60,759 nt of DNA from an uncultured Dehalococcoidaceae bacterium (GCA_964545815.1 CAZJGR010000002.1:1-60759); one strand, 5' to 3'. Positions 5,858-60,220 are shown, counted from the first letter of the stretch. Notes: generated by a model not told the origin, from the letters alone. A program made the numbers and translations.

Positions 5858-6190
5858 TTACTGGCCGTCCCAACTATCACGAATCCGCTTGACCACCTCC
5901 TCTCGTATGCCGTGAATAGCAAAAGCCTCCGCCAGCCGTTGGACTGGCGGGCAGGAGCCGTCCAGGATGATCGCTTTGAACCAGACCTGATCGGAGATAC
6001 ACAAGAGCGACTGCACCTCCCACTGCCGGTGCCTCATCGCAATTAACACCTGCGCCTGCGCCTCGTTCTCGGCCAGTACCACGACCTGGAGGCATATTAA
6101 GGCCCCACGGCGCGGCTCAAAACTGGTCAAGACGGCGACATATAGATGGAGAGGGGTAATCTGTCTCTCGATAAGGATGTTATTCACCAT
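5858..6190 (-). CDS. hypothetical protein (110 aa)
   Basis: Trimmed to ATG 6190 (MVNNILIE) behind GGAAGGGGG. Confidence 0.55.
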   Translation of the reverse strand: MVNNILIERQITPLHLYVAVLTSFEPRRGALICLQVVVLAENEAQAQVLIAMRHRQWEVQSLLCISDQVWFKAIILDGSCPPVQRLAEAFAIHGIREEVVKRIRDSWDGQ

Positions 6191-6779
6191 GCCATACCCC
6201 CTTCCGCCGTCCATGCGAAGCGGACCCCAGGACATAGACCTTTAACTCCGGCTTGTATACCTGGAGTACGCCTCCCCGTTGAGGATGCGGCCGGGCATGG
6301 ATATAAGCCTGCTTGACCAGGTAACAAATGTGCGCCTCGGTTAGCTCGGTCAACCGCACTGCCTCCCGAACCGTGATCCAATTCGGGTCCTGGACCATAG
6401 CCTCCCTGACCAGCGTCTCGTGGGTTGGCATCAATACCACTACCTCCCGCAGAAGACCCTCAAGACGACGCCTGCGAACCGCGCCTCGCAACTTCCGCAA
6501 GGCCGCCGCCTCAATCTGCCGTACCCGTTCCCGAGTGATCCCCAGGAGAAGCCCGCACTCGTGAAGGGTCAGTCCATCCCCGAACCGGTAGATGACAACC
6601 AGGGCGTGCTTACTAGGCAAGCCCCTCACCCCTTCCAAAAGACACCCCTGGAGGGCGTCACTCCAACCCTGTTGTTCTCCGGCCCATGTGGCCTGTTGAT
6701 TGCCGGGGACGAACCCGCCGTGCGCCAACCGATAGACCAGCGCCGGGTTACGGACCGCGTTCATAATGCTGCTGCTCAT
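6180..6779 (-). CDS. sigma-70 region-4-only protein fused to an excisionase/MerR-type HTH
   Basis: LVVIYRFGDGLTLHECGLLLGITRERVRQIEAAALRKLR closely matches sigma region 4.1-4.2. No region 2/3 is visible. C-terminal WITVREAVRLTELTEAHICYLVKQ looks like an HTH_17-type helix-turn-helix. ATG behind AAAGGAG. Confidence 0.8.
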   Translation of the reverse strand: MSSSIMNAVRNPALVYRLAHGGFVPGNQQATWAGEQQGWSDALQGCLLEGVRGLPSKHALVVIYRFGDGLTLHECGLLLGITRERVRQIEAAALRKLRGAVRRRRLEGLLREVVVLMPTHETLVREAMVQDPNWITVREAVRLTELTEAHICYLVKQAYIHARPHPQRGGVLQVYKPELKVYVLGSASHGRRKGVWHGE

Positions 6780-6901: not shown

Positions 6902-6920
6902 GCCTACCTAACAGGTAGGC
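6902..6920. repeat. inner palindrome GCCTACCT-AAC-AGGTAGGC
   Basis: Exact 8-bp arms. Contains the stop codon of gene 6904..7470. Confidence 0.9.
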
Positions 6921-7470
6921 AGGCAGGGAGCCAGAAGACCGGCCCCCAACGCTTGAGAGACTTGACCTTGCTGAAAAACAGGTCGGCGGGTATCATCGCT
7001 GCGGACATACTCCTCTCTGGCAGCAGACCATAAACCGTCTGCCACGAGGCCGAGAAGCCGACCAGCCATTGATGGTTACAGAGAACGGCGAGGTCGTCCA
7101 TGGTGTAGTTAGGGATTTTGACTTTGACCGTCTCTGCCAGCTCGCAGAACGGCTTCAGAAGCCCATCCCAATCTAGCCGGGAGCGGGCAGACAAAGACCG
7201 CAGCCATTTACTAAGGGCACAACGCTGGTCCTCCGCATACTCCACACCGAGAATCCACCCCTTACCTTGATGCCATTCACCTACCAGCGGATGGATGGTA
7301 ACGCTCCTGGCTATGATAGCGTGATTGACCGTGGCGATGACATCACCGGAGCCGCCCACGCCCACGACTATCCCATTGGCCAGTCGTCGGCTTATACCAT
7401 AGTCTCGCCGTTCGTACCAGAGAGTGTCACCTGTGACGATGACCCCATTGACTGTTAGCTCTTGGGGCAT
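6904..7470 (-). CDS. hypothetical protein (188 aa)
   Basis: ATG 7470 behind AAAGGAGG. The C-terminus ...PACLPVR-stop is encoded by the palindromic element. Confidence 0.65.
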   Translation of the reverse strand: MPQELTVNGVIVTGDTLWYERRDYGISRRLANGIVVGVGGSGDVIATVNHAIIARSVTIHPLVGEWHQGKGWILGVEYAEDQRCALSKWLRSLSARSRLDWDGLLKPFCELAETVKVKIPNYTMDDLAVLCNHQWLVGFSASWQTVYGLLPERSMSAAMIPADLFFSKVKSLKRWGPVFWLPACLPVR

Positions 7471-7893
7471 TTAATTTACCTCCTTTTTGTTGAACTGGCT
7501 GCGTTTCCGGTCCACTTGAGCCAGAATCGGGGCAAGGTTGACATCACGACGCAGAAGCTGGGGCACAACCCAAAAAGCACCCGCTGCATCCACCAGGTCC
7601 ACAAACAGGGTAATGTCCGAGGTTGGCAAGGACCATTCCCCTGACCAGAAGGGCTGTAGCATTGCCTGCAGGACCTGGCCGTCCGGCTGAACGACGCCCG
7701 GGCCAACGGGAAACTGCTCACCATAGGCGGTGACGTGTAGCTCGCCGCCGCGCTGCGTGACATTCCAGTATTGGCAATGTTGCAGAACGGCCCATTCTGC
7801 CGCGGCCACCTTCGCCTCCATGAAGGACAAGTACAGCGCCGGACCGGAGTGCTGACCGACCAGGATTCCGATTGCAACCTGTGTATCAGCCAT
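7471..7893 (-). CDS. hypothetical protein (140 aa)
   Basis: ATG 7893. Tightly packed between its neighbours. Confidence 0.65.
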   Translation of the reverse strand: MADTQVAIGILVGQHSGPALYLSFMEAKVAAAEWAVLQHCQYWNVTQRGGELHVTAYGEQFPVGPGVVQPDGQVLQAMLQPFWSGEWSLPTSDITLFVDLVDAAGAFWVVPQLLRRDVNLAPILAQVDRKRSQFNKKEVN

Positions 7894-8488
7894 CGCTATC
7901 CTCCTCCCCGAAATCTTCCGGGTTGTGGTAGAGCATTCCCAGGTTTAACCGAACCCTGCGGCCCGCCCATTGCCGGAATTCCCCATCGAGGACAACGACC
8001 GTTTTACCCTTGAGGTCGGCCCGTCGCAGATTGCTGCCGTCCTCGATCATACCCGGTATCCCATGCGCCTGGATAGAAGTGGGGTACACGGCGATGGTAA
8101 AGCCTGGCTCCTCGCCCTCTCTGGCTGCCCGCGCCGCGCGGACGTAAGGGATAAACCGGCTGTCGTCCAACTCGATGCCCCAGGAAACAGCGTCGAAGAT
8201 TGACTTGAGGTAATTGTCGGCATCCCTGGTCCGCCCATCATTGGGAAAGATCATGACGACATCAACCATGATCTGGACGTCTGCGGGTAAGTCCAGGAAG
8301 GCCCCACGGCGGGCACCACCACGCAGAAGCTCCGCCGTGATGGACCAGGCTAATGCTTCCTGCCAGGCCTTGACCCTCGGACGTAGAAATACCCGATTAC
8401 CGATGGCTCTTATCGTGGTTCGATGGTTGACGCTGAGATTAGGCGCCCAGGGTGCCTTGACTGTGACAAACAACTCGTCTCTGTCCAT
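7886..8488 (-). CDS. rusA: RusA-like Holliday-junction resolvase (extended C-terminus)
   Basis: RDADNYLKSIFDAV...GIELDDSRF resembles the RusA D..DN..K...D...DD motif. ATG behind CAAGGAGG. Confidence 0.7.
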   Translation of the reverse strand: MDRDELFVTVKAPWAPNLSVNHRTTIRAIGNRVFLRPRVKAWQEALAWSITAELLRGGARRGAFLDLPADVQIMVDVVMIFPNDGRTRDADNYLKSIFDAVSWGIELDDSRFIPYVRAARAAREGEEPGFTIAVYPTSIQAHGIPGMIEDGSNLRRADLKGKTVVVLDGEFRQWAGRRVRLNLGMLYHNPEDFGEEDSDG

Positions 8489-8549: not shown

Positions 8550-8589
8550 CCTGCCTGACGACAGGCCTACCTAACAGGTAGGCAGGCAG
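8550..8589. repeat. nested palindrome CCTGCCTG..CAGG + CCTACCT-AAC-AGGTAGG + CAGGCAG
   Basis: Same module set as 6881-6925. Confidence 0.85.
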
Positions 8590-8740: not shown

Positions 8741-9604
8741 CTATGACGTGCCCATTTTGTTGAGAAGCGTGACGTCTGCCGCGTTGTGTCGCTTGTAATG
8801 CAACCAGGACGACACCGCAAACACGGAACGCGCTCCCAACTCCATGCCCAGGAGCCCCTTTACCAGCAGGACCGGCTCTATATCTATGCCCTGCCGCTCC
8901 ATCTCCGCATGTAATGACGCGCAGATTTTATCGAGGTTGACTTTGTCCTCCTGGACCTTGTCCAGTCGGTCATACTCGGCCCTGGCGGCCGCCTGCATTT
9001 TGGACAGGGAGCCATACCCCGCTCCGTTGCCTGCCTGCCCGGCCGCGCCTACCTGCCCACCCTTGCCTGGCCGCGCCTTGCGGCGCTCGGCTGCCGCCCG
9101 AACGACCTCCGGACGAGGCTCCTCCTCGCCTTTGAAAACATCCTGGCCGACCCCTAATCGGGAGGCCGCCTTGCAGATGGCGTTAGTGACCGCGCCCTTG
9201 ATGGCGTCGGTCATCGGGACGGCGCCCTTGCGCTTGACTGTCCCCGAGCCACCGTTAGCAACGATCGCCTCAGACCAGACCAGGCCCGTCGTGAACGCCG
9301 GCCGGCAGATGAAGCCCTGCGCCTCGGCCGACCACTCGACCGGGGGGCATCCTGCCTCGCCATCTGGTAGGCGCCATTGCAGCGCTAGCCAGCACGTGGC
9401 TTCTTGACCGTCCAGGATGACGGGGGAGTGGACATACCTCCACCCATAGCCCGCCAGGCCGAAGACCCCATTCAGCCGCTCCAGGATGAACGCGGCTTTG
9501 ATAGAGGTCAGGTTAAACCCCCGGCTGTCATCCACCGACAAAGCCTCGCGGGGGAGAGGCTCCGTCAGCCGGCCGTAAAGACCGGATAACACATTCTTGT
9601 CCAT
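8741..9604 (-). CDS. Rad52/Sak-like single-strand annealing protein
   Basis: LTSIKAAFILERLNGVFGLAGYGW and AIKGAVTNAICKAASRLGVGQDVF resemble Rad52-family motifs. Trimmed to ATG 9604 behind GGAGG. Confidence 0.65.
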   Translation of the reverse strand: MDKNVLSGLYGRLTEPLPREALSVDDSRGFNLTSIKAAFILERLNGVFGLAGYGWRYVHSPVILDGQEATCWLALQWRLPDGEAGCPPVEWSAEAQGFICRPAFTTGLVWSEAIVANGGSGTVKRKGAVPMTDAIKGAVTNAICKAASRLGVGQDVFKGEEEPRPEVVRAAAERRKARPGKGGQVGAAGQAGNGAGYGSLSKMQAAARAEYDRLDKVQEDKVNLDKICASLHAEMERQGIDIEPVLLVKGLLGMELGARSVFAVSSWLHYKRHNAADVTLLNKMGTS

Positions 9605-9707
9605 TTGTACCTCCACGGAATAGATTGAACGATCCGGGGTAAGGTGGCCCCTCCAGAAAGCCCTTGACACCTCCTTAAAAAGGTTTAGCTCAATCCTGCC
9701 CATTTAC

Positions 9708-11051: not shown

Positions 11052-11094
11052 CGTTACCCTCCTTGTAGTACTTGATTTTGATTGCTAACCTGCC

Positions 11095-11136
11095 TGCCTA
11101 CCTGTTAGGTAGGTCTGCCTACCTGTTAGGTAGGTC
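11095..11136. repeat. tandem 21-bp unit x2 (CTGCCTACCTGTTAGGTAGGT)
   Basis: Inner palindromes at 11097-11113 and 11118-11134. Confidence 0.9.
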
Positions 11137-11156
11137 TGCAGACAGGCAGATGACCA

Positions 11157-11188
11157 CCCCCTGGACTTATTAGCATAAGCCCAGGGGG
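11157..11188. repeat. outer-arm hairpin CCCCCTGGACTTAT-tagc-ATAAGCCCAGGGGG
   Basis: 14-bp arms with one mismatch. Confidence 0.85.
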
Positions 11189-11218
11189 TGAGCATAAGCC
11201 CACCCATAGGCAGAAACC

Positions 11219-13000
11219 TTACAGCTCACGTACTCCACCACGGCGGCCCTCGGAAGCCTGCGCCTCCTTTTTTGCCGCCGCCGCCTGGACACGCATACTC
11301 TCAGGCACAAACTCAAGGTCGTTGACCTCGGCCAATGCCAGCCGCGCCATAAACTCGACGTCGGCCGTGGAAGGGATATACAGCGCCCGCGCGGTTTCCA
11401 AATCACTGGCAACCAGGTTGTCACGCCCCGCCCGCCGCGCCAATTGCACCGCCTTGAGAACCAGACCCTCGAGCTCGGCGCCGGTCCAGCCCCCCGTGTT
11501 TTCAGCGATAACAGCGATGGCTTTGTGGCCCTTCTTATCGCCTATCGTCACTCCGTACTTTTTGAGCATGACGTTGACCAGTACAGCCCGCTCGGCCGTA
11601 TACGCCGGAGGCAGAAGGGGTATCTTGACGTCAAACCTACCAGGACGCTTGAAAGCGGCATCCAGCAAGTCTGGCCTGTTGGTGGCCGCCAGGGTGAAAA
11701 TCCGTCCCCTGTGGCTGTTATCGCTCAAGAACTCCAACAGCCGCCCCAACTGATGACCACCCACGTCGCTGCCCTTGGGACCCTCGGACCGGGCCTGGAA
11801 CTTTTGGTCGATCTCATCAATGAATAGGATGCAGGGAGCAAGCGCCTCGATTGCCAGAAGCGTGCGCTCTAACTTTTGTTCAGATTGACCAACATACATC
11901 CCCAGGATTTTGGCGGGGTTGATTTTGGCACAATGGAACCCGGACTCGAACGCCAACGCCTCGGCGATGGCGGTCTTGCCAGTGCCAGCAGGACCCATCA
12001 ACAAGGCCCCCAGGGGCGCTTTTGGATCTCCGATCTGCAGGGCCTTGACGACGTCCGCAAAGAACGCTTTGGCCGCCTCGTGCCCCGCTACCATGTCGAA
12101 CCCGAATTGAGGCTCCCACAATTCCAGGATGTCCCCGAACTCAGACCGGACAATCGCGTCTTTACGCTCCTTGACCAATCTGGCATCCACCGGGCGCCCC
12201 TCGTACTGCGCCCGAAGGAAGACGTCCTCCAGGTTGACCAGGGACAGCAACGCCGTTGACCTGGCCAATTGCGGGAGGGGCATGTCTACCTCTTGACCCG
12301 ACTCCTGCACGTAAGCCTCCAACCATACCAACCGCTCGGCCTCGTTTGGTAGTGGGACCATGATGGCCTCGATGCCCGAACCGCTAACCCTCAGCGACTC
12401 GGCCACCTGGCCAAGATTGCGCGCCACGAGGATGATCAACCCGTTTTGACCGATTGCCATGTCCTGACTCCAGTTGGTCACCGAGGCAATGGCGACACGA
12501 TCTTCAGGCTGTAGATGGCCCGGGTCACCGGCCGGACATAGCATCTCGGCCTGGTTGAGAATAACCGCCACGCGTAACATCCTGACCTCGCCCCCGACGT
12601 CCTGTGGCTCAAGCCTCAGCAAACGCCCCAGGAGAGGGAAGACCTCGCCGGCCTTGCGTGGAAGCTCGACCTCCTGCGCAGACAGGCCGCCGCCGACCGC
12701 CTGATTCAACCCCATGGCCGCCGCCAGACTGCCTGCACCCATGGCCTCCAGACCGAGGACTTTGACGAATAATGCTTTTTGCTCATCGCCCCCAAATGTT
12801 AGACCACTCGCAACATCGTAACGAACCACGATGTCGCGCCGGACTAACATCTGCGAGAGGTAGTCCTGCACTCGAACCGTCCCCGACGCGTAGTCGTTGA
12901 CGTTGAAATGCAGGAGAAAAGTGTGCGCCAACTTCTGGCCGTACTTGGCGGCCAACTCGCTGGCCCACGCCACACCATTTGTCTTGACGCCGTTTTCCAT
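11219..13000 (-). CDS. classical-clade AAA+ ATPase (Ycf46/FtsH/Cdc48-like module, 593 aa)
   Basis: Walker A GPAGTGKT, Walker B ILFIDEID, ATNRPDLLDAAFKRPGRFD second region of homology. Confidence 0.9.
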   Translation of the reverse strand: MENGVKTNGVAWASELAAKYGQKLAHTFLLHFNVNDYASGTVRVQDYLSQMLVRRDIVVRYDVASGLTFGGDEQKALFVKVLGLEAMGAGSLAAAMGLNQAVGGGLSAQEVELPRKAGEVFPLLGRLLRLEPQDVGGEVRMLRVAVILNQAEMLCPAGDPGHLQPEDRVAIASVTNWSQDMAIGQNGLIILVARNLGQVAESLRVSGSGIEAIMVPLPNEAERLVWLEAYVQESGQEVDMPLPQLARSTALLSLVNLEDVFLRAQYEGRPVDARLVKERKDAIVRSEFGDILELWEPQFGFDMVAGHEAAKAFFADVVKALQIGDPKAPLGALLMGPAGTGKTAIAEALAFESGFHCAKINPAKILGMYVGQSEQKLERTLLAIEALAPCILFIDEIDQKFQARSEGPKGSDVGGHQLGRLLEFLSDNSHRGRIFTLAATNRPDLLDAAFKRPGRFDVKIPLLPPAYTAERAVLVNVMLKKYGVTIGDKKGHKAIAVIAENTGGWTGAELEGLVLKAVQLARRAGRDNLVASDLETARALYIPSTADVEFMARLALAEVNDLEFVPESMRVQAAAAKKEAQASEGRRGGVREL

Positions 13001-13039
13001 TGTAATACCCTCCTTGACTTGACCTTTGATTGCTAACTA

Positions 13040-13112
13040 CCCTCTAGACTTTTTCTCACCTGTCTGCCTACCTGTTAGGTAGGTCTGCCGCCAGGCAGAT
13101 AAGTCCAGAGGG
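13040..13112. repeat. full nested element (outer CCCTCTAGACTT/AAGTCCAGAGGG around CCTACCTGTTAGGTAGG at 13067-13083)
   Basis: Outer arms have one mismatch. The inner palindrome is exact. Confidence 0.85.
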
Positions 13113-13153
13113 CAGGCAGCAATCACCTGCCTGCCCAGGGTAAGGCCGAACCA

Positions 13154-13303
13154 CTAGCCGCATAGACCAACCGGCCCCAGGAGATTGAGCTCACCGTTGC
13201 CCAGGAGCGCCTCCAGGGCTTCGATAAGCTCCTCCGAGAGCCAATCGGCCATGATTTTGACCTTGCCATCCACGATGAGAAAGACCAACTCACGCTGCCC
13301 CAT
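13154..13303 (-). CDS. small ORF (49 aa), possible second DUF2997-like paralog
   Basis: Below the ORF-track cutoff. ATG 13303 behind GAGGAGG. ...EALEALLGNGELN resembles ...LAGLEALLGGASN of the next gene. Confidence 0.4.
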   Translation of the reverse strand: MGQRELVFLIVDGKVKIMADWLSEELIEALEALLGNGELNLLGPVGLCG

Positions 13304-13490
13304 CGCGCACCTCCTCGCTGGCCTGGCCGCCGGAACCTTGCCAGTATTCCGGCTTTAGTTCCGTGTTGGAAGCTCCACCCAGGAGCGCCTCCAGACCGGC
13401 CAACACCTCGGAGATACAGACGGGACCATGACCGCCCAGGACCTCGGCGGTAACCTTGCCGCCCTCACCGATTTTAATGATGATCTCCAT
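13290..13490 (-). CDS. DUF2997-like small protein (66 aa)
   Basis: Trimmed to ATG 13490 (MEIIIKIGEGGKVTAEVLGGHGPVC) behind AGGAGG. Confidence 0.55.
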   Translation of the reverse strand: MEIIIKIGEGGKVTAEVLGGHGPVCISEVLAGLEALLGGASNTELKPEYWQGSGGQASEEVRDGAA

Positions 13491-13671
13491 CAGAGCGACC
13501 TCCTGCAACCTTGATTCTGAATGCGATGGCCCGTAAGGTACGCTCGGACACCCAATCTCCATCTACCAGGTAGAGTGTGACCGGGCAACCAAACGTGCCG
13601 TCGCCATTTTTGAACGTGCCCACCCGCGTGTCTTCCGGCCTGACGCGCTCGATGACTTCCTGCAATTCCAT
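13474..13671 (-). CDS. hypothetical protein (65 aa)
   Basis: ATG 13671 behind GGAGGTG. Confidence 0.5.
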   Translation of the reverse strand: MELQEVIERVRPEDTRVGTFKNGDGTFGCPVTLYLVDGDWVSERTLRAIAFRIKVAGGRSDGDHH

Positions 13672-13672
13672 G

Positions 13673-14071
13673 CTACACCTCCATCCTGATTCTGAGGGCG
13701 AACCCGCCCTCGACTTGACCGGCCTGCAGGACCCGGCCGCGCTTTTGTTGCACGAATTTCAGCACGGCATGTTTTGCGTATGCCTCCTGGAGCCTGGAGA
13801 ACCAAGTCTCATTGAAACGACCTGAATCAAACTCGGACACGATAGGGATGAACCCCTGTCCGGCCCAGCGAAAGCCCACGTCGTTTGACATCGCGCCGAT
13901 CTGCTGACGTCGTATCACGATCTGAGCGACTTCTGGCCGGAGGTCACCCTTGTAACCATACAGCCCCAAAGTCGCGCCGACCTCCGGCTGAAACCCCAGC
14001 TCCTTAAGAGCTGCAACCAGGCAGTCGGCGTTAAGGAACTTGATGCTGTCAAACTCCTTATAAGCGGACAT
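13673..14071 (-). CDS. DUF1257 (Ycf35)-like protein
   Basis: CLVAALKELGFQPEV...LYGYKGDLRPEVAQIVIRR...DVGF fits my recollection of DUF1257. Confidence 0.65.
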   Translation of the reverse strand: MSAYKEFDSIKFLNADCLVAALKELGFQPEVGATLGLYGYKGDLRPEVAQIVIRRQQIGAMSNDVGFRWAGQGFIPIVSEFDSGRFNETWFSRLQEAYAKHAVLKFVQQKRGRVLQAGQVEGGFALRIRMEV

Positions 14072-14102
14072 TGCACACCTCCTTGATTTTGGATTAGAAC
14101 TG

Positions 14103-14154
14103 CCCCTTGCGGACTTTGCCTGCCTGTGGCAGACAGGTCAAAATCCGCAAGGGG
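14103..14154. repeat. CCCCTTGCGGACTTTG...CAAAATCCGCAAGGGG hairpin, copy 1
   Basis: 16-bp arms with one mismatch. The loop carries CCTGCCTGTGGCAGACAGG. Confidence 0.9.
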
Positions 14155-15274: not shown

Positions 15275-15291
15275 CTTATTAATCTCCTTTG

Positions 15292-15875
15292 ACTACGGAT
15301 TCCTCGGGCTTATCCACCCGTCAGGCTCTAGGAAGTCGGCGAGCCTCCTACATTTTACGCCTTACCTGACATAGCAGGTTAGAGCCTGGCGGAAGGATAA
15401 ACCGAAACTCCCGCTTTGTGTACGATTGCCATCATTGCACAGTATCCACCGCCGCTGGCCGCATAGTACAACGTACCAGCTATCGATGTAGCATTACCCC
15501 CGCGCTCGGCCTCACGTACCACTATCATCAGGCTGTTTTTGGAAGCTAACTTTGACCTGTTGGTCTATCCCATCTCTCCGAAGAGTCCCCCCCGACTAGG
15601 CGGGGTTACTTCACTCAGAAACTCCATCGCTGGAGGCTGCCTGAGTTGGACCGGTCTCCCTCCGTTTCCACTCTTTGGGAGAGAAGAAGCTTACGCTACC
15701 TTGACACCCCTCTTGTGGCTTACAATCCCCCCGCTTTCTCCGCCATGTTCTCGGCTGTTTCCCCCTCCGCTGGCCCGGTGGCTTTGCGAGTTTCCCCGCC
15801 TCCGTTTCTACACCTGGGCGACCTTCGGGCTGCCTACCCCACTGAGGGGCTTGAGGATTGCTCACTTTTAATTCT
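15292..15875 (-). ncRNA. candidate large structured RNA / 5' leader (~585 nt), class unknown
   Basis: No credible ORF on either strand. Begins ~7 nt downstream of a consensus extended -10 promoter. Minus-strand reading gives these hairpins: GCGGG-GAAA-CTCGC (15799-15786); two-tier ACTCAG..CTCCA-GCGA-TGGAG..CTGAGT (15646-15613); CTC-UUCG-GAG (15585-15576); TCTCCC...GGGAGA enclosing a G-GAAA-C loop (15682-15655); CCCCG-6 nt-CGGGG (15605-15590). A long-range helix pairs 15861-15853 with 15730-15722. A ~24-bp near-perfect duplex pairs 15404-15381 with 15330-15305. Confidence 0.6.
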
Positions 15876-15881
15876 ACCTTA

Positions 15882-15910
15882 ATTATACCAGGTGTTACAA
15901 TTAAATGCAA
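15882..15910 (-). promoter_or_regulatory. sigma70-type promoter P-earlyL (TTGCAT-17-TGgTATAAT)
   Basis: On the minus strand, -35 TTGCAT is at 15910-15905 and -10 TATAAT at 15887-15882. The spacer is exactly 17 nt and a TGn extended -10 is present. Confidence 0.75.
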
Positions 15911-15920
15911 TAGGAAAGAG

Positions 15921-15950
15921 GTACTATACCTCGTACTATACCTCGTACAC
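15921..15950. repeat. tandem 12-mer GTACTATACCTC x2.5 just upstream of the -35
   Basis: Units at 15921-15932, 15933-15944, and partial at 15945-15950. Confidence 0.9.
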
Positions 15951-16026
15951 TGCTTTTGCGAATAACGCAATTACAAATAACGTAAAGGCTGGCCACCTTG
16001 TAGCGCAATAAAACAGCCGCCCCTCG

Positions 16027-16200
16027 TAGGCAGAGCGTGACCTGCAGGACCTCGCTGTAACCGGCGCGACTTGCTCGACTTTGCGCCAACCGGCGTGGCT
16101 TGCTCGACTTTGAGCGGCAGAGCGCCTGACTGTAGTCAAAGGTAGGCAGAGCGCCGGACTGCGCGCGCCTGGATGCAGAGCGCCGGACTGAGGTAGGCAG
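16027..16200. repeat. block of ~29-bp periodic direct repeats (iteron/centromere-like)
   Basis: AACCGGCG(C/T)G(A/G)CTTGCTCGACTTTG at 16059 and 16088. GCAGAGCGCC(T/G)GACTG at 16118, 16147 and 16175, with a degenerate copy at 16031. The region is noncoding. Confidence 0.8.
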
Positions 16201-16310
16201 GCTGCATTTGGTTAGATTGCGCACTTTTAAGCCATAAGCCGTGCACGGCGCCTGCTTATCGCCAACATACCCCCCCCCACTTTACCGTGCTAGACTTTTG
16301 CCCCTATCCC

Positions 16311-16342
16311 CCCCCTGGACTTTGCCTAGTAAGTCCAGGGGG
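16311..16342. repeat. outer-arm hairpin CCCCCTGGACTT-tgcctagt-AAGTCCAGGGGG
   Basis: Exact 12-bp arms. Confidence 0.9.
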
Positions 16343-16344
16343 CA

Positions 16345-16380
16345 ATAAAAAAGAGAGCGCAGATGACCGCGCCCTCTTCA
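16345..16380 (-). terminator. rho-independent terminator of the second leftward operon
   Basis: Minus strand reads GAAGAGGGCGC-ggtcatct-GCGCTCTCTT followed by TTTTTATT. Confidence 0.75.
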
Positions 16381-16398
16381 CTAGTGAAGCCGCGTACT

Positions 16399-17343: not shown

Positions 17344-17409
17344 TCTGGACTTGCCTGCCTGTGGCAGACCTACCTAACAGGTAGGCAGACAGGTCAAGAC
17401 AAGTCCAGA
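17344..17409. repeat. full nested element (TCTGGACTT / AAGTCCAGA around GCCTGCCTG.. and CCTACCT-AAC-AGGTAGG)
   Basis: All three palindrome tiers are present. Overlaps the stop codon of the FtsK-like gene. Confidence 0.9.
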
Positions 17410-18704
17410 CTTTCATCAACTAACTGCTTTTTGACTGTTGCGATCGCGGCCGCAACACGAGGAGGATTGACGTCTGTCCCATACTGTTCGATATGCCACC
17501 TGCGGACCAACCGCTGCGAGCATTCTCCCGACGTCTGTAACTGCGCCTTGATAAAGGCTAACATCTCACTTTCAGCGATTGCACCAGGCCGACCAGGCCC
17601 GGGCATCGCCAAGACCTCCCGCAGTTCCTTTTCATCGCCCGAACCTGACCCCGGCTCCTTAACCGCGTGACATTCGACCCGCAAGCCGGCCTGCCTGCGC
17701 CCTGTCTGCCTGACAGGCAGGAGGCAGGCAAGATCGCTTTCGTGAACCAGAGCAGCCTTGAAGCGTGTTTTCTGCCCCTGGTGGACGACTAGCATGTCGC
17801 CCAACCCCAGGAGCCTTTCAGCGTTCGAACCCGGCACGCCTAGAGCGATAGAAGCTTCTGCCGCCGAGTTGACTGCCCCGCTGATCCGGACCGGAAAGTT
17901 AGCTCGCATAAGACCGGCCACAACATCGGCGGATGGCCTCTGCGTCGCAATAATGCAATGTATGCCGGCCTCACGCCCACGCTGCACCAGGCGAGCCAGA
18001 CCCACCTCGACAGGATGACCTCCTACCATGACGAGGTCCGCCACCTCGTCCACGAACAGATACAACGCAGGACGATTGAACCCCTGCCTATCCCGCCGCT
18101 CCAGAGTTTGCAGCAAATGTGTCAGAAGCCCTGTAGCCGACTGCGCATCCTTGCAGCAATCCTCCACCCCCCGCAAACTTGACAGCCCGGCCAACTTGCG
18201 GCCCTTGGGGTCCACGAGGAGAAACCTGGCGTCCTGGACTTTTGACCACAAGACCAGAGAAACCAGCATGGTACACAGAAGCTCTGTCTTCCCTGAGCCT
18301 GTCATGCCGCTTACCAAAGCGTGCGCTGCCGTTGGACTGGACATACACAACAAAAGAGGTACACCTCGATTTGACAGGCCCAGGAGCGCGCTTTGCCCAG
18401 GAGGAGCGCTTTTGAACCGGGTGATTACCTGGTTGAAGGGCACCGAAACCCCATCACTACGGGGGACCTCGATGATCACCCCATCGGGCTGGCTGTTGAC
18501 AATAATTTTAGGGACTTGAAGGGACAACGCAATCTCACGATTAAGACCTTCCAGCTCTCGAACCCGCCGCCCTCGGCCCAACTGAACACGATAGCAAACC
18601 ACCTGCGGCAAGATCTCCCCACCCAGGATGCGAACTGCTATCCCGTAGTCTTTGAGAACCTCTTCGAGTCGGTTTGACTGTAGCTCCAAAAGCCTTCTAT
18701 CCAT
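17394..18704 (-). CDS. soluble FtsK/SpoIIIE/TraB-like dsDNA translocase
   Basis: GMTGSGKTE Walker A, LFVDEVADL Walker B, IIATQRPSADVV, LLGLGDMLV. No TM segment. A ~100-aa C-terminal domain follows an in-frame palindromic element. Confidence 0.9.
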   Translation of the reverse strand: MDRRLLELQSNRLEEVLKDYGIAVRILGGEILPQVVCYRVQLGRGRRVRELEGLNREIALSLQVPKIIVNSQPDGVIIEVPRSDGVSVPFNQVITRFKSAPPGQSALLGLSNRGVPLLLCMSSPTAAHALVSGMTGSGKTELLCTMLVSLVLWSKVQDARFLLVDPKGRKLAGLSSLRGVEDCCKDAQSATGLLTHLLQTLERRDRQGFNRPALYLFVDEVADLVMVGGHPVEVGLARLVQRGREAGIHCIIATQRPSADVVAGLMRANFPVRISGAVNSAAEASIALGVPGSNAERLLGLGDMLVVHQGQKTRFKAALVHESDLACLLPVRQTGRRQAGLRVECHAVKEPGSGSGDEKELREVLAMPGPGRPGAIAESEMLAFIKAQLQTSGECSQRLVRRWHIEQYGTDVNPPRVAAAIATVKKQLVDESLDLS

Positions 18705-21266: not shown

Positions 21267-21316
21267 CGTCGAGTACCTCCCTTCAAATTTGACTTTAACG
21301 AGAAACTAACCTGCCT

Positions 21317-21335
21317 GCCTACCTGTTAGGTAGGC
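21317..21335. repeat. inner palindrome GCCTACCT-GTT-AGGTAGGC
   Basis: Exact arms. Confidence 0.9.
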
Positions 21336-26133: not shown

Positions 26134-26781
26134 ATGGCACAATCCGACTCGGCTATACTAGCCACCCCTGCCAGCCCGAATGGGGTAACGACCCTCGGCC
26201 CGTCAAAGAGCAACGGTAACGGCAACCTGAAAGCTCCACCGCCGCAGGAGGTACACGGAGTCATTCTCTACCACTCCGACCCCGCCATCGATGACCGTAT
26301 AAGAGAGGTCCGGTCGCTGCGGGAGGAATACGGCTTTGACGTGTCCTATATCGCTCAGGCCGTTAGAGTGTCGCGCGCCCAGGCGTTTGCCTACCTGAAA
26401 CAAATCAGGCTGGCCCGCAAAGCGTATATGGCCGCGTTTCCCGAAGACTTTATCTCCGGCATGGAAGCGATGGTTACAGCCATCGAACAACGGCGGGAAA
26501 TGGACACCATGCTGCGGCGGGAACTTGGCAAGTCCTCCGGCGATAACAATCCGTCAAACCGAGTCGGATTGTACAAACTGATCATGAGAAACATGCGGGA
26601 GTTGGAGGAACTCTGCGGCCTTTTGGTTAACCGCATTGAGCACGGCGGGGAAATCGCTATAAATGACATGAAGACCGCCCTGGACCAGGCTCCCGCCCCA
26701 CTACGGGAGGCCTACCTTGACGCTCTCGCAGCTGTGGTTCATGCAACAGCACCAGCAGCTAACCAGGGACCAGGCAGTTGA
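26134..26781 (+). CDS. terS: putative terminase small subunit
   Basis: Position directly upstream of and overlapping TerL. HTH-like GFDVSYIAQAVRVSRAQAFAYLKQ plus a helical C-terminal half. Confidence 0.55.
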   Translation: MAQSDSAILATPASPNGVTTLGPSKSNGNGNLKAPPPQEVHGVILYHSDPAIDDRIREVRSLREEYGFDVSYIAQAVRVSRAQAFAYLKQIRLARKAYMAAFPEDFISGMEAMVTAIEQRREMDTMLRRELGKSSGDNNPSNRVGLYKLIMRNMRELEELCGLLVNRIEHGGEIAINDMKTALDQAPAPLREAYLDALAAVVHATAPAANQGPGS

Positions 26782-28474
26782 CCTGCTGGCTTATTACGGC
26801 CATTCGCGCCCGGTAAGCTTACTGGCCTGGGCCCTGACCTATCGCGCCCTGGACGGCCACCCCTTCACCCTGGATAAATACCCGTCCAGTGTAGCACTTT
26901 ACAAAGACGAAGCCCCCTTTATCGTCGTAGAGAAACCTAACCAGGTAGGAATTTCAGAGTGGCTTATCAATACCGCCCTCCATGCGCTGGATATGGGGGC
27001 GGGCTATTTCGGGATTGAACACCTGAAAAAAAGCCTGAACGTAGGCTACATTTTTCCTACCTGGATAGCCCTGCGGGATTTTTCCAAAGACCGCGTCCGA
27101 AGAATCGCTCTGGAAACCGGGTATCTGTCCGCCCTCTTGGCGCCGGTGCGAAAGGCCGGCTCCCTGCGACGGGAAAGCGACCTGGGGCTGTACTTCATAC
27201 GAGCAAGCGCACTTTACCTGCGAGGCGCGCACCGGCCCGATGAACAATTGGCCTCCTTTCCCGTAGACATCCTCCTGGTGGACGAGTACGACCTGATCAC
27301 TCTGCGGGCCATCGCCCTGGCCGAGAAGAGGTTGAGGGCCTCCCCCCTCCGGCTGAAACGATACATCTCCAAGCCGACCTTGCCTAATATGGGGGTTGAT
27401 AAACTCTACCAGGAGAGCGACCAGCACCAATGGGAAATCCGGTGTCCCACCTGCGGGGACTGGCAACCGCCCGATTTTTGGGACAACGTGTTCCTGGTGG
27501 ATAGGGGGAAAAAGCTACCTTATGCAGAGTGGTCGAAACGGGACCGCAACGACCTCCTGCAAAGCTGTTTTGAGTTTGCCTGCCGCCGTTGCCAGACGCC
27601 CCTGCACCATATCAGTCCTGGCCGCTGGCAACCCCAAAACCAGGGAGCGCCGATCAGGGGCTATCGTATCCCTGGCCTGGTCAGCCCTTACGTTCCTTTA
27701 ATAGAGATAGTTAAGGGCAGCCTGGCCGAGGAGCCGGACATCCTCCTGGAATGGTACAGAGCTGACCTGGGCCTGCCCAAAGCCCCGGAGGGCGGGCAGC
27801 TAAAGTGGGACGATCTCCAGGCTTGCCAATCCGCCGACTGCCACCTGCAGCAGAGAGCCCACCGTTGCACCATGGGTGTAGACATCGGAGTCAATCTCCA
27901 TGTCCGCGTGAGTTCGTACCAAAAGGGAACCTGGCAAACCGTCTGGATAGGAGAGGTAGACGAGTTCGAGCAGCTAGACGAACTCATGACCCGCTATGAA
28001 GTCCGGGCCGCGGTCATCGATGCCCTACCCGAAACCCGGTCGAGTAGAAATTTTTGCCTGCGCTGGCCGGGACGAGCCTGGATGGCCTACTACTCTGACA
28101 CCCAAAAAGAGGTCTATGTCTGGAAAGACCCGCCAGAGGGAGAACGACACAGAGAGGCGGGCAAGGTGCTAATCACCCGCACCGAGGCGATGGACCGCGT
28201 GGCCGCCAACCACCGGGAGGGGAAGGACGTCCTCCCGCTTGAGGCCCATGCCGTCCCAGGGTTTTTCAGACACCTGTGCGCGCCGGTGCGCGTAATGACC
28301 ACCAGAACCAAAACGGATGGAACCCACTACAGTGTAGCCGTCTACCTGGAGAGCGGACCGGACCACTACTATCATGCCAGCGTTTACGAGCTGGCGGCCA
28401 GGGAGCGACTCAAGCCGGCATTGCTGAACCTGACGGCCGGCATAACCACTGAGCAATCCGCCTTTGAGGTCTGA
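26717..28474 (+). CDS. terL: terminase large subunit (lambda GpA-like)
   Basis: EKPNQVGISE (Walker A-like), ILLVDEYD (Walker B), CPTCG...CRRCQ Zn-finger as in the GpA family. TTG 26717 behind GGGAGG (alternative ATG 26741). Confidence 0.8.
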   Translation: MTLSQLWFMQQHQQLTRDQAVDLLAYYGHSRPVSLLAWALTYRALDGHPFTLDKYPSSVALYKDEAPFIVVEKPNQVGISEWLINTALHALDMGAGYFGIEHLKKSLNVGYIFPTWIALRDFSKDRVRRIALETGYLSALLAPVRKAGSLRRESDLGLYFIRASALYLRGAHRPDEQLASFPVDILLVDEYDLITLRAIALAEKRLRASPLRLKRYISKPTLPNMGVDKLYQESDQHQWEIRCPTCGDWQPPDFWDNVFLVDRGKKLPYAEWSKRDRNDLLQSCFEFACRRCQTPLHHISPGRWQPQNQGAPIRGYRIPGLVSPYVPLIEIVKGSLAEEPDILLEWYRADLGLPKAPEGGQLKWDDLQACQSADCHLQQRAHRCTMGVDIGVNLHVRVSSYQKGTWQTVWIGEVDEFEQLDELMTRYEVRAAVIDALPETRSSRNFCLRWPGRAWMAYYSDTQKEVYVWKDPPEGERHREAGKVLITRTEAMDRVAANHREGKDVLPLEAHAVPGFFRHLCAPVRVMTTRTKTDGTHYSVAVYLESGPDHYYHASVYELAARERLKPALLNLTAGITTEQSAFEV

Positions 28475-59838: not shown

Positions 59839-60156
59839 ATGCCGATTAAGGACCCTGACCTTTACCCGCCCGACTGGTGGCGAATCAGCCTGCAGGAGCG
59901 TGTGAACAGCGGCTGGCGCTGCCGGTTTTGCAGGGCCGAACAGGGAGAACCGCACCCGGTCACCGGCTCCAGAGTAGTCCTGACCGTGGCTCACCTGGAC
60001 CACAACCCGCAAAACAACGACCCGGACAACCTGGCGGCTTTGTGCCAAAAGTGTCATCTGGCCTACGATCAGCAGGAACACCTACACCACGCCGCTCAGA
60101 CCAGGCGAAGAAGGAAAGTGGAAGCCGGGCAACTAGAGCTATTAGAGGCCCCATAG
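59839..60156 (+). CDS. HNH endonuclease (phage packaging-associated type)
   Basis: CRFC...VLTVAHLDHNPQNNDPDNLAALCQKCHLAYD. Trimmed to ATG 59839. Confidence 0.85.
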   Translation: MPIKDPDLYPPDWWRISLQERVNSGWRCRFCRAEQGEPHPVTGSRVVLTVAHLDHNPQNNDPDNLAALCQKCHLAYDQQEHLHHAAQTRRRRKVEAGQLELLEAP

Positions 60157-60220
60157 CTCAAATGGGAGAGCAACGGTCTCCAAAACCGTGAGGTGAGGGT
60201 TCGAGGCCCTCTGTGGGCCG
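60147..60220 (+). tRNA. tRNA-Trp (anticodon CCA)
   Basis: Manual fold gives: D arm GCTC/GAGC; anticodon arm ACGGT-CTCCAAA-ACCGT; variable loop GAGGT; T arm GAGGG-TTCGAGG-CCCTC; G discriminator. The acceptor stem GGCCCCA/TG(T)GGGCC needs one bulged base. Overall close to bacterial tRNA-Trp. Confidence 0.7.

Follow-up and report, generated by a model that had tools for sequence, protein, structure and literature searches.

A mobile-element cassette linking a Cdc48-like AAA+ ATPase to DUF3150, DUF1257 and DUF2997 proteins: a candidate protein-remodelling machine

Tandem AAA+ ATPases that carry an inactive N-terminal copy and are encoded beside PspA, the bacterial ESCRT-III, have already been described by comparative genomics, and a Vps4-like role was proposed for them (PMC11237479). 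Here we describe a second genomic setting of the same ATPase family. On mobile elements its most constant genomic partner is a DUF3150 protein, which holds the gene position that PspA has beside the cellular members of the family. The starting point is a cassette in a 60,759-nucleotide (nt) stretch of DNA from an uncultured Dehalococcoidaceae bacterium (GCA_964545815.1 CAZJGR010000002.1:1-60759; the whole stretch is called the window below), which looks like a complete tailed-phage genome. In order of transcription, the cassette encodes a DUF1257 (Ycf35-family) protein, a 65-amino-acid (aa) open reading frame (ORF), a DUF2997 protein, a 49-aa DUF2997-like paralog, the ATPase and the DUF3150 protein (Table 1). 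A first-pass annotation of the sequence had confined the cassette to positions 11219-14071, which is too short because the DUF3150 gene was missed, and it had also overlooked the published link of the ATPase family to PspA in cellular genomes (PMC11237479).

The window ATPase and the PspA-associated tandem AAA+ proteins share their architecture, catalytic residues and a C-terminal extension; a chromosomal PspA-linked member (P0056) is 41% identical to the window ATPase over its full length, and in both settings the gene for the partner comes next on the same strand, directly downstream. On the other hand, the partner in the window is DUF3150, which has no detectable homology to PspA, and the phage version also has DUF1257, DUF2997 and the paralog, which were found at none of the PspA-class loci. 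PspA was found near neither the window cassette nor any DUF3150-linked locus; the window ATPase is a member of the family by sequence and not part of a PSP operon.

Among better-known proteins, Cdc48/p97/VAT and other type II AAA proteins are the best structural and sequence matches. The double AAA fold, the second region of homology with two arginines and a pore loop of the aromatic-hydrophobic-Gly type are shared with Cdc48/p97/VAT, Rix7, Drg1/Afg2 and Pex1/Pex6, and in Pex1/6 the first ring is weak or inactive, as in the window ATPase. However, identity to the Cdc48-type unfoldases is only 16-20% in structural alignments, and unlike them the window ATPase has no N-terminal double-psi barrel or other cofactor-binding N-domain, its D1 P-loop is wholly lost, and its putative cofactors are unrelated to UBX or Ufd1/Npl4. 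A functional analogy may also be drawn with Vps4/CdvC and ESCRT-III, where a classical-clade AAA protein stands beside a partner thought to be disassembled. Vps4 differs in having one AAA ring only and in its MIT domain, for which the window gave no match, and the likeness of DUF3150 to ESCRT-III is one of gene position.

Two further arrangements share parts of the cassette. Cyanobacterial and plastid Ycf35 and DUF2997 belong to the same Pfam families as the small proteins, and plasmids of Nostoc carry the order DUF1257-DUF2997-x-AAA, whereas the chromosomal cyanobacterial cluster adjoins a ferredoxin gene and not an ATPase gene. The joint loss of ycf35 and ycf46 from freshwater red-algal plastomes provides circumstantial support for a link between these two genes. 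In the AAA_5/DUF3150-like/DUF2201 trios of proteobacterial plasmids, a DUF3150 homologue directly follows an AAA+ ATPase gene, but the ATPase is of the dynein/MoxR-like AAA_5 type, and the trios include a VWA protein while lacking DUF1257 and DUF2997. The middle gene of these trios was recognized by tblastn (E 1e-7 in pBB2 and down to 1e-15 in others) and is not Pfam-significant.

The ATPase and its DUF3150 partner

The ATPase matches PF00004 (E 2.5e-30, residues 333-460), followed by a weak match to AAA_lid_3 (22.6 bits, under the 27.2 cut-off). Its AlphaFold2 (AF2) model contains two AAA folds (predicted local distance difference test, pLDDT, 91.1), and Foldseek aligned 500-650 columns of it to p97/Cdc48, Rix7, Drg1 and Pex1/6; compared with the PDB, the sequence profile matched with its C-terminal half only, best to VAT (D1 and D2 domains) and Cdc48. 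The D1-like domain has lost Walker A, with FLLHFNVNDY in its place and no GxxGxGK[ST] anywhere in residues 1-290. The D2 module retains Walker A (GPAGTGKT, K342), Walker B (DEID 395-398, D395/E396), a YVG pore loop (369-371), sensor-1 (N441) and arginine fingers (R452/R455), all of them invariant or nearly so among 44 homologues. The two modelled folds, the lost D1 P-loop and the intact D2 motifs thus argue for a type II classical AAA protein with a predicted dead first ring and a predicted complete translocating motor. The first-pass description of a Ycf46/FtsH-type AAA+ ATPase therefore stands as far as a classical AAA (FtsH/Cdc48-like) module is concerned, although the protein is not FtsH itself: TIGR01241 scored 127.9 bits against a cut-off of 600, over the AAA module only, and no peptidase domain is present. 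CdvC was also rejected (66.5 bits against 650, no MIT match and two AAA folds in the model), and the proteasomal ATPase and other named AAA families fell far under their NCBIfam cut-offs.

More than 200 full-length homologues of the ATPase were collected (30-58% identity), some of which bear the COG label "SpoVK/Ycf46/Vps4". The degenerate D1-like domain defines a family of modest size: of 1.84 billion representatives, 659 clusters were matched at E<=1e-3. Two homologues (P0051 and P0075) contain intein and homing-endonuclease domains (PF14528, PF14890), and the long ORFs of L101 (946 aa), L183 (921 aa) and L206 (987 aa) may hold inteins too.

The protein encoded directly after the ATPase scored just under the PF11348 cut-off (23.1 bits against 24.9), and it aligns over 376 residues (BLASTP E 2e-32) with a homologue from L078 that passes it (29.5 bits); 11 of 13 aligned homologues match PF11348, the best at 2.1e-28. 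Gene content across related loci places this putative DUF3150 gene within the conserved unit, which hence runs past position 11219. A comparison of profiles gave an hhalign probability of only 1.7% between DUF3150 and PspA, and the idea that DUF3150 is a cryptic PspA/ESCRT-III was rejected. No PHROG was matched, and nothing significant was found in the PDB, where the best hit was a phage scaffolding protein (E 0.021).

The relationship between the two partners was examined in a census of 33 metagenome loci, each flanked on either side by about 1.5 kb or more, which were retrieved by patterns specific to the degenerate N-domain and scored with profiles built in this analysis. DUF3150 was adjacent in 23 loci and PspA in 6, four loci had neither, and none had both. 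Small proteins accompanied 22 of the 23 DUF3150 loci (DUF1257 and DUF2997 in 10, DUF2997 only in 2, and in 10 an unrelated pair, here called the MPCN type and described below), none of the PspA loci, and two of those with neither partner, the latter being of the MPCN type. These counts depend on home-built hidden Markov models (HMMs) and a crude ORF caller, and the weak DUF1257 matches in some loci (E 1e-4 to 1e-6) are less secure than those that Pfam confirms. A scan of genomes, mostly metagenome-assembled genomes (MAGs) of Bacillota, gave 20 loci with PspA, four with DUF3150 and five with neither; one locus (L004) reproduces the published operon, in which PspA is followed by an NMT1/OmpA protein (PMC11237479). 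Profile and tree agree that the degenerate N-terminal domain is kept across both classes. In a rough neighbour-joining tree (no support values), the PspA-linked members, with few exceptions, fall into one clade that is nested among members linked to mobile elements, and the window ATPase groups with L001 and L168-L170.

DUF3150 proteins also occur with other motors. Homologues are paired with a second classical-AAA subtype whose N-domain is unrelated to that of the window ATPase, and a tblastn match to DUF3150 was obtained on 55 plasmids. In the proteobacterial trio, an ATPase of about 341 aa is followed by the DUF3150-like protein and then by a VWA-like protein of about 400 aa. The HMM check covered pBB2 of Cupriavidus necator (L249), where by Pfam the DUF3150 homologue is flanked by an ATPase of the AAA_5 type and by a VWA-like DUF2201 protein that carries a putative metallopeptidase domain; Burkholderia vietnamiensis pBVIE02 (L250) and a Rhodovastum plasmid (L251) have the same order by gene size and record annotation. 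These pairings suggest that DUF3150-like proteins are habitual partners of AAA+ motors.

Small proteins and variation of the cassette

All five ORFs named in the first-pass annotation were confirmed on the minus strand, each with a GGAGG-type ribosome-binding (Shine-Dalgarno, SD) site at the correct distance, and starts and stops abut or overlap; the SD sites and this spacing make it probable that they are translated, coupled genes. The DUF1257 and DUF2997 assignments were borne out by Pfam, both above cut-off. The DUF1257 protein matches PF06868 (E 5.5e-11, 43.1 bits against 22.2, profile positions 1-91 of 103), and its gene is preceded by a strong SD, AAGGAGGTG. The first two residues, M1 and S2, are near-invariant among 43 homologues. 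Essentially all Ycf35 proteins are reported to have an MSH N-terminus (PMC13060386), and in the window the protein begins MSAY, so that the His is replaced by Ala. Its AF2 model (pLDDT 93.8) has a mixed alpha/beta fold in the order strand-helix-4 strands-helix-2 strands. No PDB analogue was found by sequence or by Foldseek at E<1, and a single match was obtained among the predicted viral structures of BFVD (template modelling score 0.70).

The DUF2997 protein matches PF11211 (E 2.4e-9, 37.3 bits against 24.1, profile positions 1-46 of 47) as well as phrog_23133, and Cys25 is shared without exception by 13 homologues. For the 49-aa ORF Pfam gave no match, yet a profile of its homologues from eight loci matched the DUF2997 profile with a probability of 92.7% (hhalign, E 4.4e-7), which upholds the guess that it is a second paralog. 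It has an SD (GAGGAGGTG) and overlaps the DUF2997 gene by 14 nt; a C-terminal Cys-Gly is present in all eight aligned homologues despite an identity of 24-43%, and the Bacillota versions carry extra CxxC pairs. The ORF is a real gene and a genuine paralog of DUF2997.

The 65-aa ORF exists with its SD where it had been placed, its start overlapping the DUF1257 stop (TAGCATG), but it is not part of the conserved module. No match was found in Pfam, PHROG, PADLOC or NCBIfam; about 250 related loci, among them the closest relative, L001, contain no homologue, and in most other loci DUF1257 and DUF2997 are separated by 1-3 nt. The 65-aa ORF is a lineage-specific local insertion. The 65-aa, 124-aa and 82-aa upstream ORFs were rejected as parts of the module, being without homologues in related loci.

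The nearest long contig (L001, 66.8 kb) has, in this order, DUF1257, DUF2997, the small paralog, AAA, DUF3150, Rad52-like and RusA-like genes. The order DUF1257-DUF2997-x-AAA-DUF3150 is found in the window, L001, L078, L080 and L159; AAA-DUF1257-(x)-DUF2997-DUF3150 in L044, L160 and L248; and DUF3150-DUF1257-DUF2997-x-x-AAA in L162. The window order recurs in a Pelotomaculum schinkii region with DnaB_2 and PemK genes nearby. That these families co-occur on mobile elements, as the first-pass annotation stated, was confirmed: all four contexts reached from independent DUF1257 homologues contain a DUF2997-type ORF, an AAA gene and a DUF3150 gene within 5 kb (in L157/L158 the DUF2997 ORF has no Pfam match on record and was found only by a profile built here), and the set is also present on annotated plasmids of Nostoc and Ca. 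Manganitrophus, whose records give its genes no names beyond DUFs and "AAA family ATPase". The second classical-AAA subtype with accessory genes was seen on three IMG/VR contigs and at several other loci. In one lineage of five closely related loci, a 201-aa ORF is an apparent DUF1257-DUF2997 fusion. Its DUF2997 part is confirmed by Pfam (E 2e-11), and its N-terminal part, which begins MSH, matches only the home-built DUF1257 profile (E 1e-5 to 5e-4). Permuted order, partner swaps and the apparent fusion, recurring across phyla, argue strongly that the cassette is a functional unit.

On the other side, tblastn of GenBank phages with the window DUF1257, the window DUF3150 and the L160 DUF3150 found nothing, so that, as far as BLAST is able to detect it, cultured phages essentially lack the module. 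Single-sequence pattern scans of IMG/VR yielded no close relatives; an alignment of DUF1257 was too variable to provide search patterns. A literature search by DUF name found neither an account of this cassette nor a function for DUF1257, DUF2997 or DUF3150.

Several other genes were observed beside the cassette. In a phage-like contig family present in many samples (L160/L161), the ATPase gene is directly preceded and overlapped by a Tad4-family gene (PF25186). RadC/JAB-family genes stand just upstream of the cassette in at least five loci from different lineages, by Pfam or record annotation in L002, L162 and L248 and by sequence inspection in L078 and L080, an association that may be looser and optional. 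In L157/L158, PRTRC_E, PRTRC_C (Pfam: Prok_Ub), a weak PRTRC_F and a single-stranded DNA-binding protein (SSB) directly follow DUF3150.

In about half of the DUF3150-linked cassettes, DUF1257 is replaced by a protein of an unannotated family of about 125-140 aa without a Pfam match, which has the invariant start Met-Pro-Cys-(Asn/Asp/Gly)-Ala, including an invariant Cys3 (the MPCN family). The idea that it is a divergent DUF1257 was rejected (hhalign probability 2%), and the two are treated as analogous and not homologous. Its partner, which is fused to MPCN in three loci, is a small hairpin protein that has a His-rich tail and in which the motif EQHRHD is invariant. The replacement was seen in Thermincola (L002) and in the Chloroflexi-labelled loci examined (L098, L099, L101, L109), and to that extent the co-occurrence in Chloroflexi given in the first-pass annotation was not supported.

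Some of these features may point toward metals or redox chemistry. Conserved residues of the small proteins lie near the chain ends, such as DUF1257 M1-S2 and the terminal Cys-Gly of the paralog, and in cyanobacteria DUF2997-ycf35 is conserved next to the ferredoxin gene fed7. The terminal Ser/His and Cys residues, together with the swaps for Cys/His-rich or Fe-S partners, hint at a metal- or redox-linked cofactor, and the small-protein complex might bind metal or sense redox state. Genes for NrdG-like radical-SAM activases were noticed inside or beside cassettes of two unrelated types, called by TIGR02491 below cut-off in L157, by 34% identity to that protein in L245, and by eye in L105; among the Pfam matches in the flanks of L157, the one locus looked at, an NrdD was not noticed.

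A candidate remodelling machine and its alternatives

Tentatively, and with slightly less than even confidence, we read the cassette as one multi-protein AAA+ remodelling machine of mobile elements, made up of a motor, a DUF3150 partner and a small-protein cofactor. The ATPase would form a double-ring hexamer, in which the catalytically dead N-terminal ring would serve as a structural or binding platform, while the C-terminal ring would hydrolyse ATP and thread polypeptide through its Tyr-Val-Gly pore loop, as in Cdc48/p97/VAT. The protein-remodelling role proposed in the first-pass annotation would fit the predicted intact motor and pore loop. Because it takes the genomic position of PspA, DUF3150 would most likely be a dedicated client or scaffold, with the ATPase governing its state of assembly. 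DUF1257, DUF2997 and the Cys-Gly paralog probably form a stoichiometric complex that would act as adaptor or regulator, and contact between the first two is supported by the apparent fusion and by the close spacing of their genes in most loci. Since the module is embedded among replication and recombination genes, the leading guess for the process acted on is a DNA-associated protein assembly or one of early infection.

Several points weigh against this reading. Genomics cannot separate client from adaptor roles, and the roles given to the accessory proteins are predictions of this kind. In the PspA-linked class the small proteins are missing, and about half of the DUF3150-linked loci have non-homologous ones in their stead, so that the motor itself does not need them. 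The placing of DUF3150 in the role of PspA is by gene position alone, the DUF1257-DUF2997 fusion occurs in a single lineage and falls under the Pfam threshold for DUF1257, and the Cys/His pattern is suggestive only. The modelled DUF1257 fold has no solved analogue and hence offers no structural support for any specific activity.

With respect to biological role, the ATPase and DUF3150 might instead load, recycle or dismantle complexes of the Rad52-like annealase, SSB and RusA on incoming or replicating DNA as a recombination or replication accessory, an unlikely alternative that is compatible with the machine model. It would account for the Rad52-like and RusA genes that directly follow DUF3150 in the window and its closest relatives, for the SSB, Sipho_Gp157 and helicase genes next to the module in L157, for the PDDEXK nuclease and RadC genes by it in L162 and L002, and for DprA in L160 and DnaB_2 in L159. 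However, these neighbours vary by locus while the core genes remain constant, no recognisable DNA-binding or nuclease domain is present in the core proteins, classical-clade AAA proteins act on proteins and not DNA, and genes of unrelated function are routinely found together in the early parts of mobile elements. The same variable neighbourhood bears on a defence or counter-defence module, in which the ATPase would either sense infection or act on an immune protein of the host by unfolding or extracting it, the small proteins being decoys or sensors. The Tad4-family gene directly upstream in L160, PemK toxin in L159, Fic in L248, RadC/JAB in the five loci named above, the patchy distribution across phyla and partial PADLOC matches of the AAA module to IetA and TRIP13 are all in keeping with it. 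But the IetA and TRIP13 matches cover the generic AAA module alone; PADLOC v2 has no match for DUF1257, the 65-aa ORF, DUF2997, the paralog or DUF3150, on which basis membership in a known defence system was rejected; the conserved core lacks an effector domain (nuclease, protease, TIR or pore); and DUF1257 and DUF2997 look housekeeping-like in cyanobacteria and plastids. Such a module is quite unlikely.

The invariant C-terminal Cys-Gly raises the thought of a small-protein modification or cofactor system, in which the paralog or DUF2997 would be a tag, a sulfur or metal carrier or a glycyl-radical-type substrate; this protein would be processed by the accessory proteins and treated by the ATPase in the way that Cdc48 treats ubiquitylated clients. 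The frequent adjacency of JAB/RadC peptidase-like genes, the NrdG-like activases inside two cassette types, the adjacent PRTRC ubiquitin-like cassette of L157 and the Cdc48-like nature of the ATPase agree with this thought, which is nonetheless improbable: the core has no E1/E2-like enzyme, the JAB and radical-SAM genes occur in a minority of loci and are absent from the window, and the Cys-Gly protein is missing from both the second-AAA-subtype and the MPCN cassettes. A terminal Gly also differs in geometry from the known glycyl-radical sites. That the genes are unrelated neighbours whose synteny was inherited by descent among close relatives is hardly credible. Wider synteny, including Rad52-like and RusA genes, does exist in the closest relatives (L001, L168-L170), but permuted sets are found in Bacillota-labelled MAGs, the Pelotomaculum genome, plasmids of Cyanobacteriota and Nitrospirota and IMG/VR contigs, with ATPases that are only 28-40% identical and in some cases have unrelated N-domains. 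The apparent fusion in one lineage and the strict alternation of DUF3150 and PspA neighbourhoods speak against it as well, and the DUF1257-anchored contexts, the census and the second AAA subtype effectively refute it.

The remodelling machine may also be framed more boldly, as a self-contained segregase system of a new kind, a version that we consider rather unlikely. DUF3150 would then form a polymer or scaffold on DNA or membrane, PspA/ESCRT-III-like in function and assembling early in infection; its disassembly by the ATPase would be gated by the DUF1257-DUF2997-Cys-Gly cofactor, new in fold and metal- or redox-sensing, and ycf35, DUF2997 and possibly ycf46 would represent the cellular version.

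All of the families concerned are already in Pfam, and the PspA-linked branch of the ATPase family has been described (PMC11237479). Nevertheless, DUF1257/Ycf35 and DUF2997 are conserved in cyanobacteria and algal plastids and have had no function assigned after decades, and DUF3150, common on plasmids, is equally blank. Their link to a Cdc48-like unfoldase turns this gap into a concrete hypothesis, namely that they are partners of a protein-remodelling motor, and the alternation of DUF3150 and PspA connects the module with ESCRT-III-like remodelling in bacteria, of which a picture is now emerging. The compact, permuted and apparently fused cassettes of phages and plasmids offer a small, genetically tractable test system. 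If the machine reading is true, it would give four families of unknown function a biochemical context and bring to light a step of protein remodelling early in the life of many mobile elements.

Setting of the cassette in the phage genome

The window has a leftward arm, from about 22.8 kb down to 1, with regulatory and DNA-metabolism genes, and a rightward arm from about 23.4 kb to 58 kb (Table 1). The cassette lies in the leftward arm, 9-11 kb from the arm start near 22.8 kb. Recombination genes are located just downstream, as the first-pass annotation had stated, but its view that the cassette is one of the first things the phage expresses is not supported, given this distance and the terminator-like hairpin and promoter-like sites that come before it.

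Table 1. Features of the window (positions from its first letter) and of related loci (own coordinates)
Feature	Position	Strand	Basis or remark
DUF1257 (Ycf35-family) protein, 132 aa	13673..14071	-	PF06868
65-aa ORF	13474..13671	-	between DUF1257 and DUF2997
DUF2997 protein, 66 aa	13290..13490	-	PF11211; start is the SD-supported ATG at 13490
DUF2997-like paralog, 49 aa	13154..13303	-	ends Cys-Gly-COOH
Spacer, 153 nt	13001..13153		before ATPase gene; hairpins and one CCTACCTAACAGGTAGGCAG copy (13064-13083)
Predicted type II classical AAA+ ATPase, 593 aa	11219..13000	-	PF00004, AF2, Foldseek
Degenerate D1-like AAA domain, residues ~10-290	12131..12973	-	family-defining
Predicted active D2 AAA module, residues ~297-545	11366..12112	-	invariant columns in 44 homologues and PDB profile match
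Spacer	11052..11218		before DUF3150 gene; two tandem CCTACCTAACAGGTAGGCAG copies (11094-11134)
DUF3150-family protein, 447 aa	9708..11051	-	PF11348 and homology to passing members
Rad52-like gene	8741-9703		just downstream of DUF3150 gene
RusA gene	7886-8488		downstream of Rad52-like gene
Region of lower G+C	15275-16398		upstream of cassette
Strong terminator-like hairpin	16379-16350	-	
Two promoter-like sites	15962-15935 and 15900-15871		near 15.9 kb, upstream of cassette
CCTACCTAACAGGTAGGCAG, exact copies	6903-6922, 8566-8585, 11094-11113, 11115-11134, 13064-13083, 17369-17388, 21315-21334		
CCTACCTAACAGGTAGGCAG, copies with 2-3 mismatches	2618, 29538, 48143		
Long inverted repeat GCCCCTTGCGGA...TCCGCAAGGGGC	14085-14145		between 124-aa ORF and DUF1257 start
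Protein with sigma-70 region 4	6180-6779		
FtsK/SpoIIIE-family ATPase	17394-18704		
Large terminase homologue	26717-28474		rightward arm
2203-aa ORF, tape-measure-sized			rightward arm
tRNA-Trp	60147-60219		near right end
MPCN proteins	L002 5006-5392; L109 4099-4515		also L098/L099/L101 and many of L164-L237
NrdG-like genes	L157 5642-6214; L245 5343-5957; L105 6765-7337		L245 type also in L238, L242, L246, L247
Tad4-family gene	L160/L161 3004-3372		PF25186
PRTRC genes and SSB	L157/L158 7775-9618		directly after DUF3150

Upstream of the cassette is a region of about 1.1 kb with lower G+C and no convincing gene, in which neither Rfam nor ARAGORN detected an RNA gene (15.3-16.4 kb). The transcription unit that holds the cassette probably has its regulatory start here, and the cassette, being downstream of the hairpin and the promoter-like sites, probably belongs to an internal unit.

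A 20-nt element, CCTACCTAACAGGTAGGCAG, with the palindromic core CCTACCT-AAC-AGGTAGG, has eight exact copies in the window against none expected. The copies occur in both orientations, chiefly between genes of the leftward arm, with one just upstream of the ATPase gene and a tandem pair upstream of the DUF3150 gene; the element could be an operator, a terminator or an RNA-processing site. The inverted repeat near the DUF1257 start encloses another sequence, CCTGTCTGCC, which is over-represented in the window, with 33 matches at no more than one mismatch against 6.5 expected.

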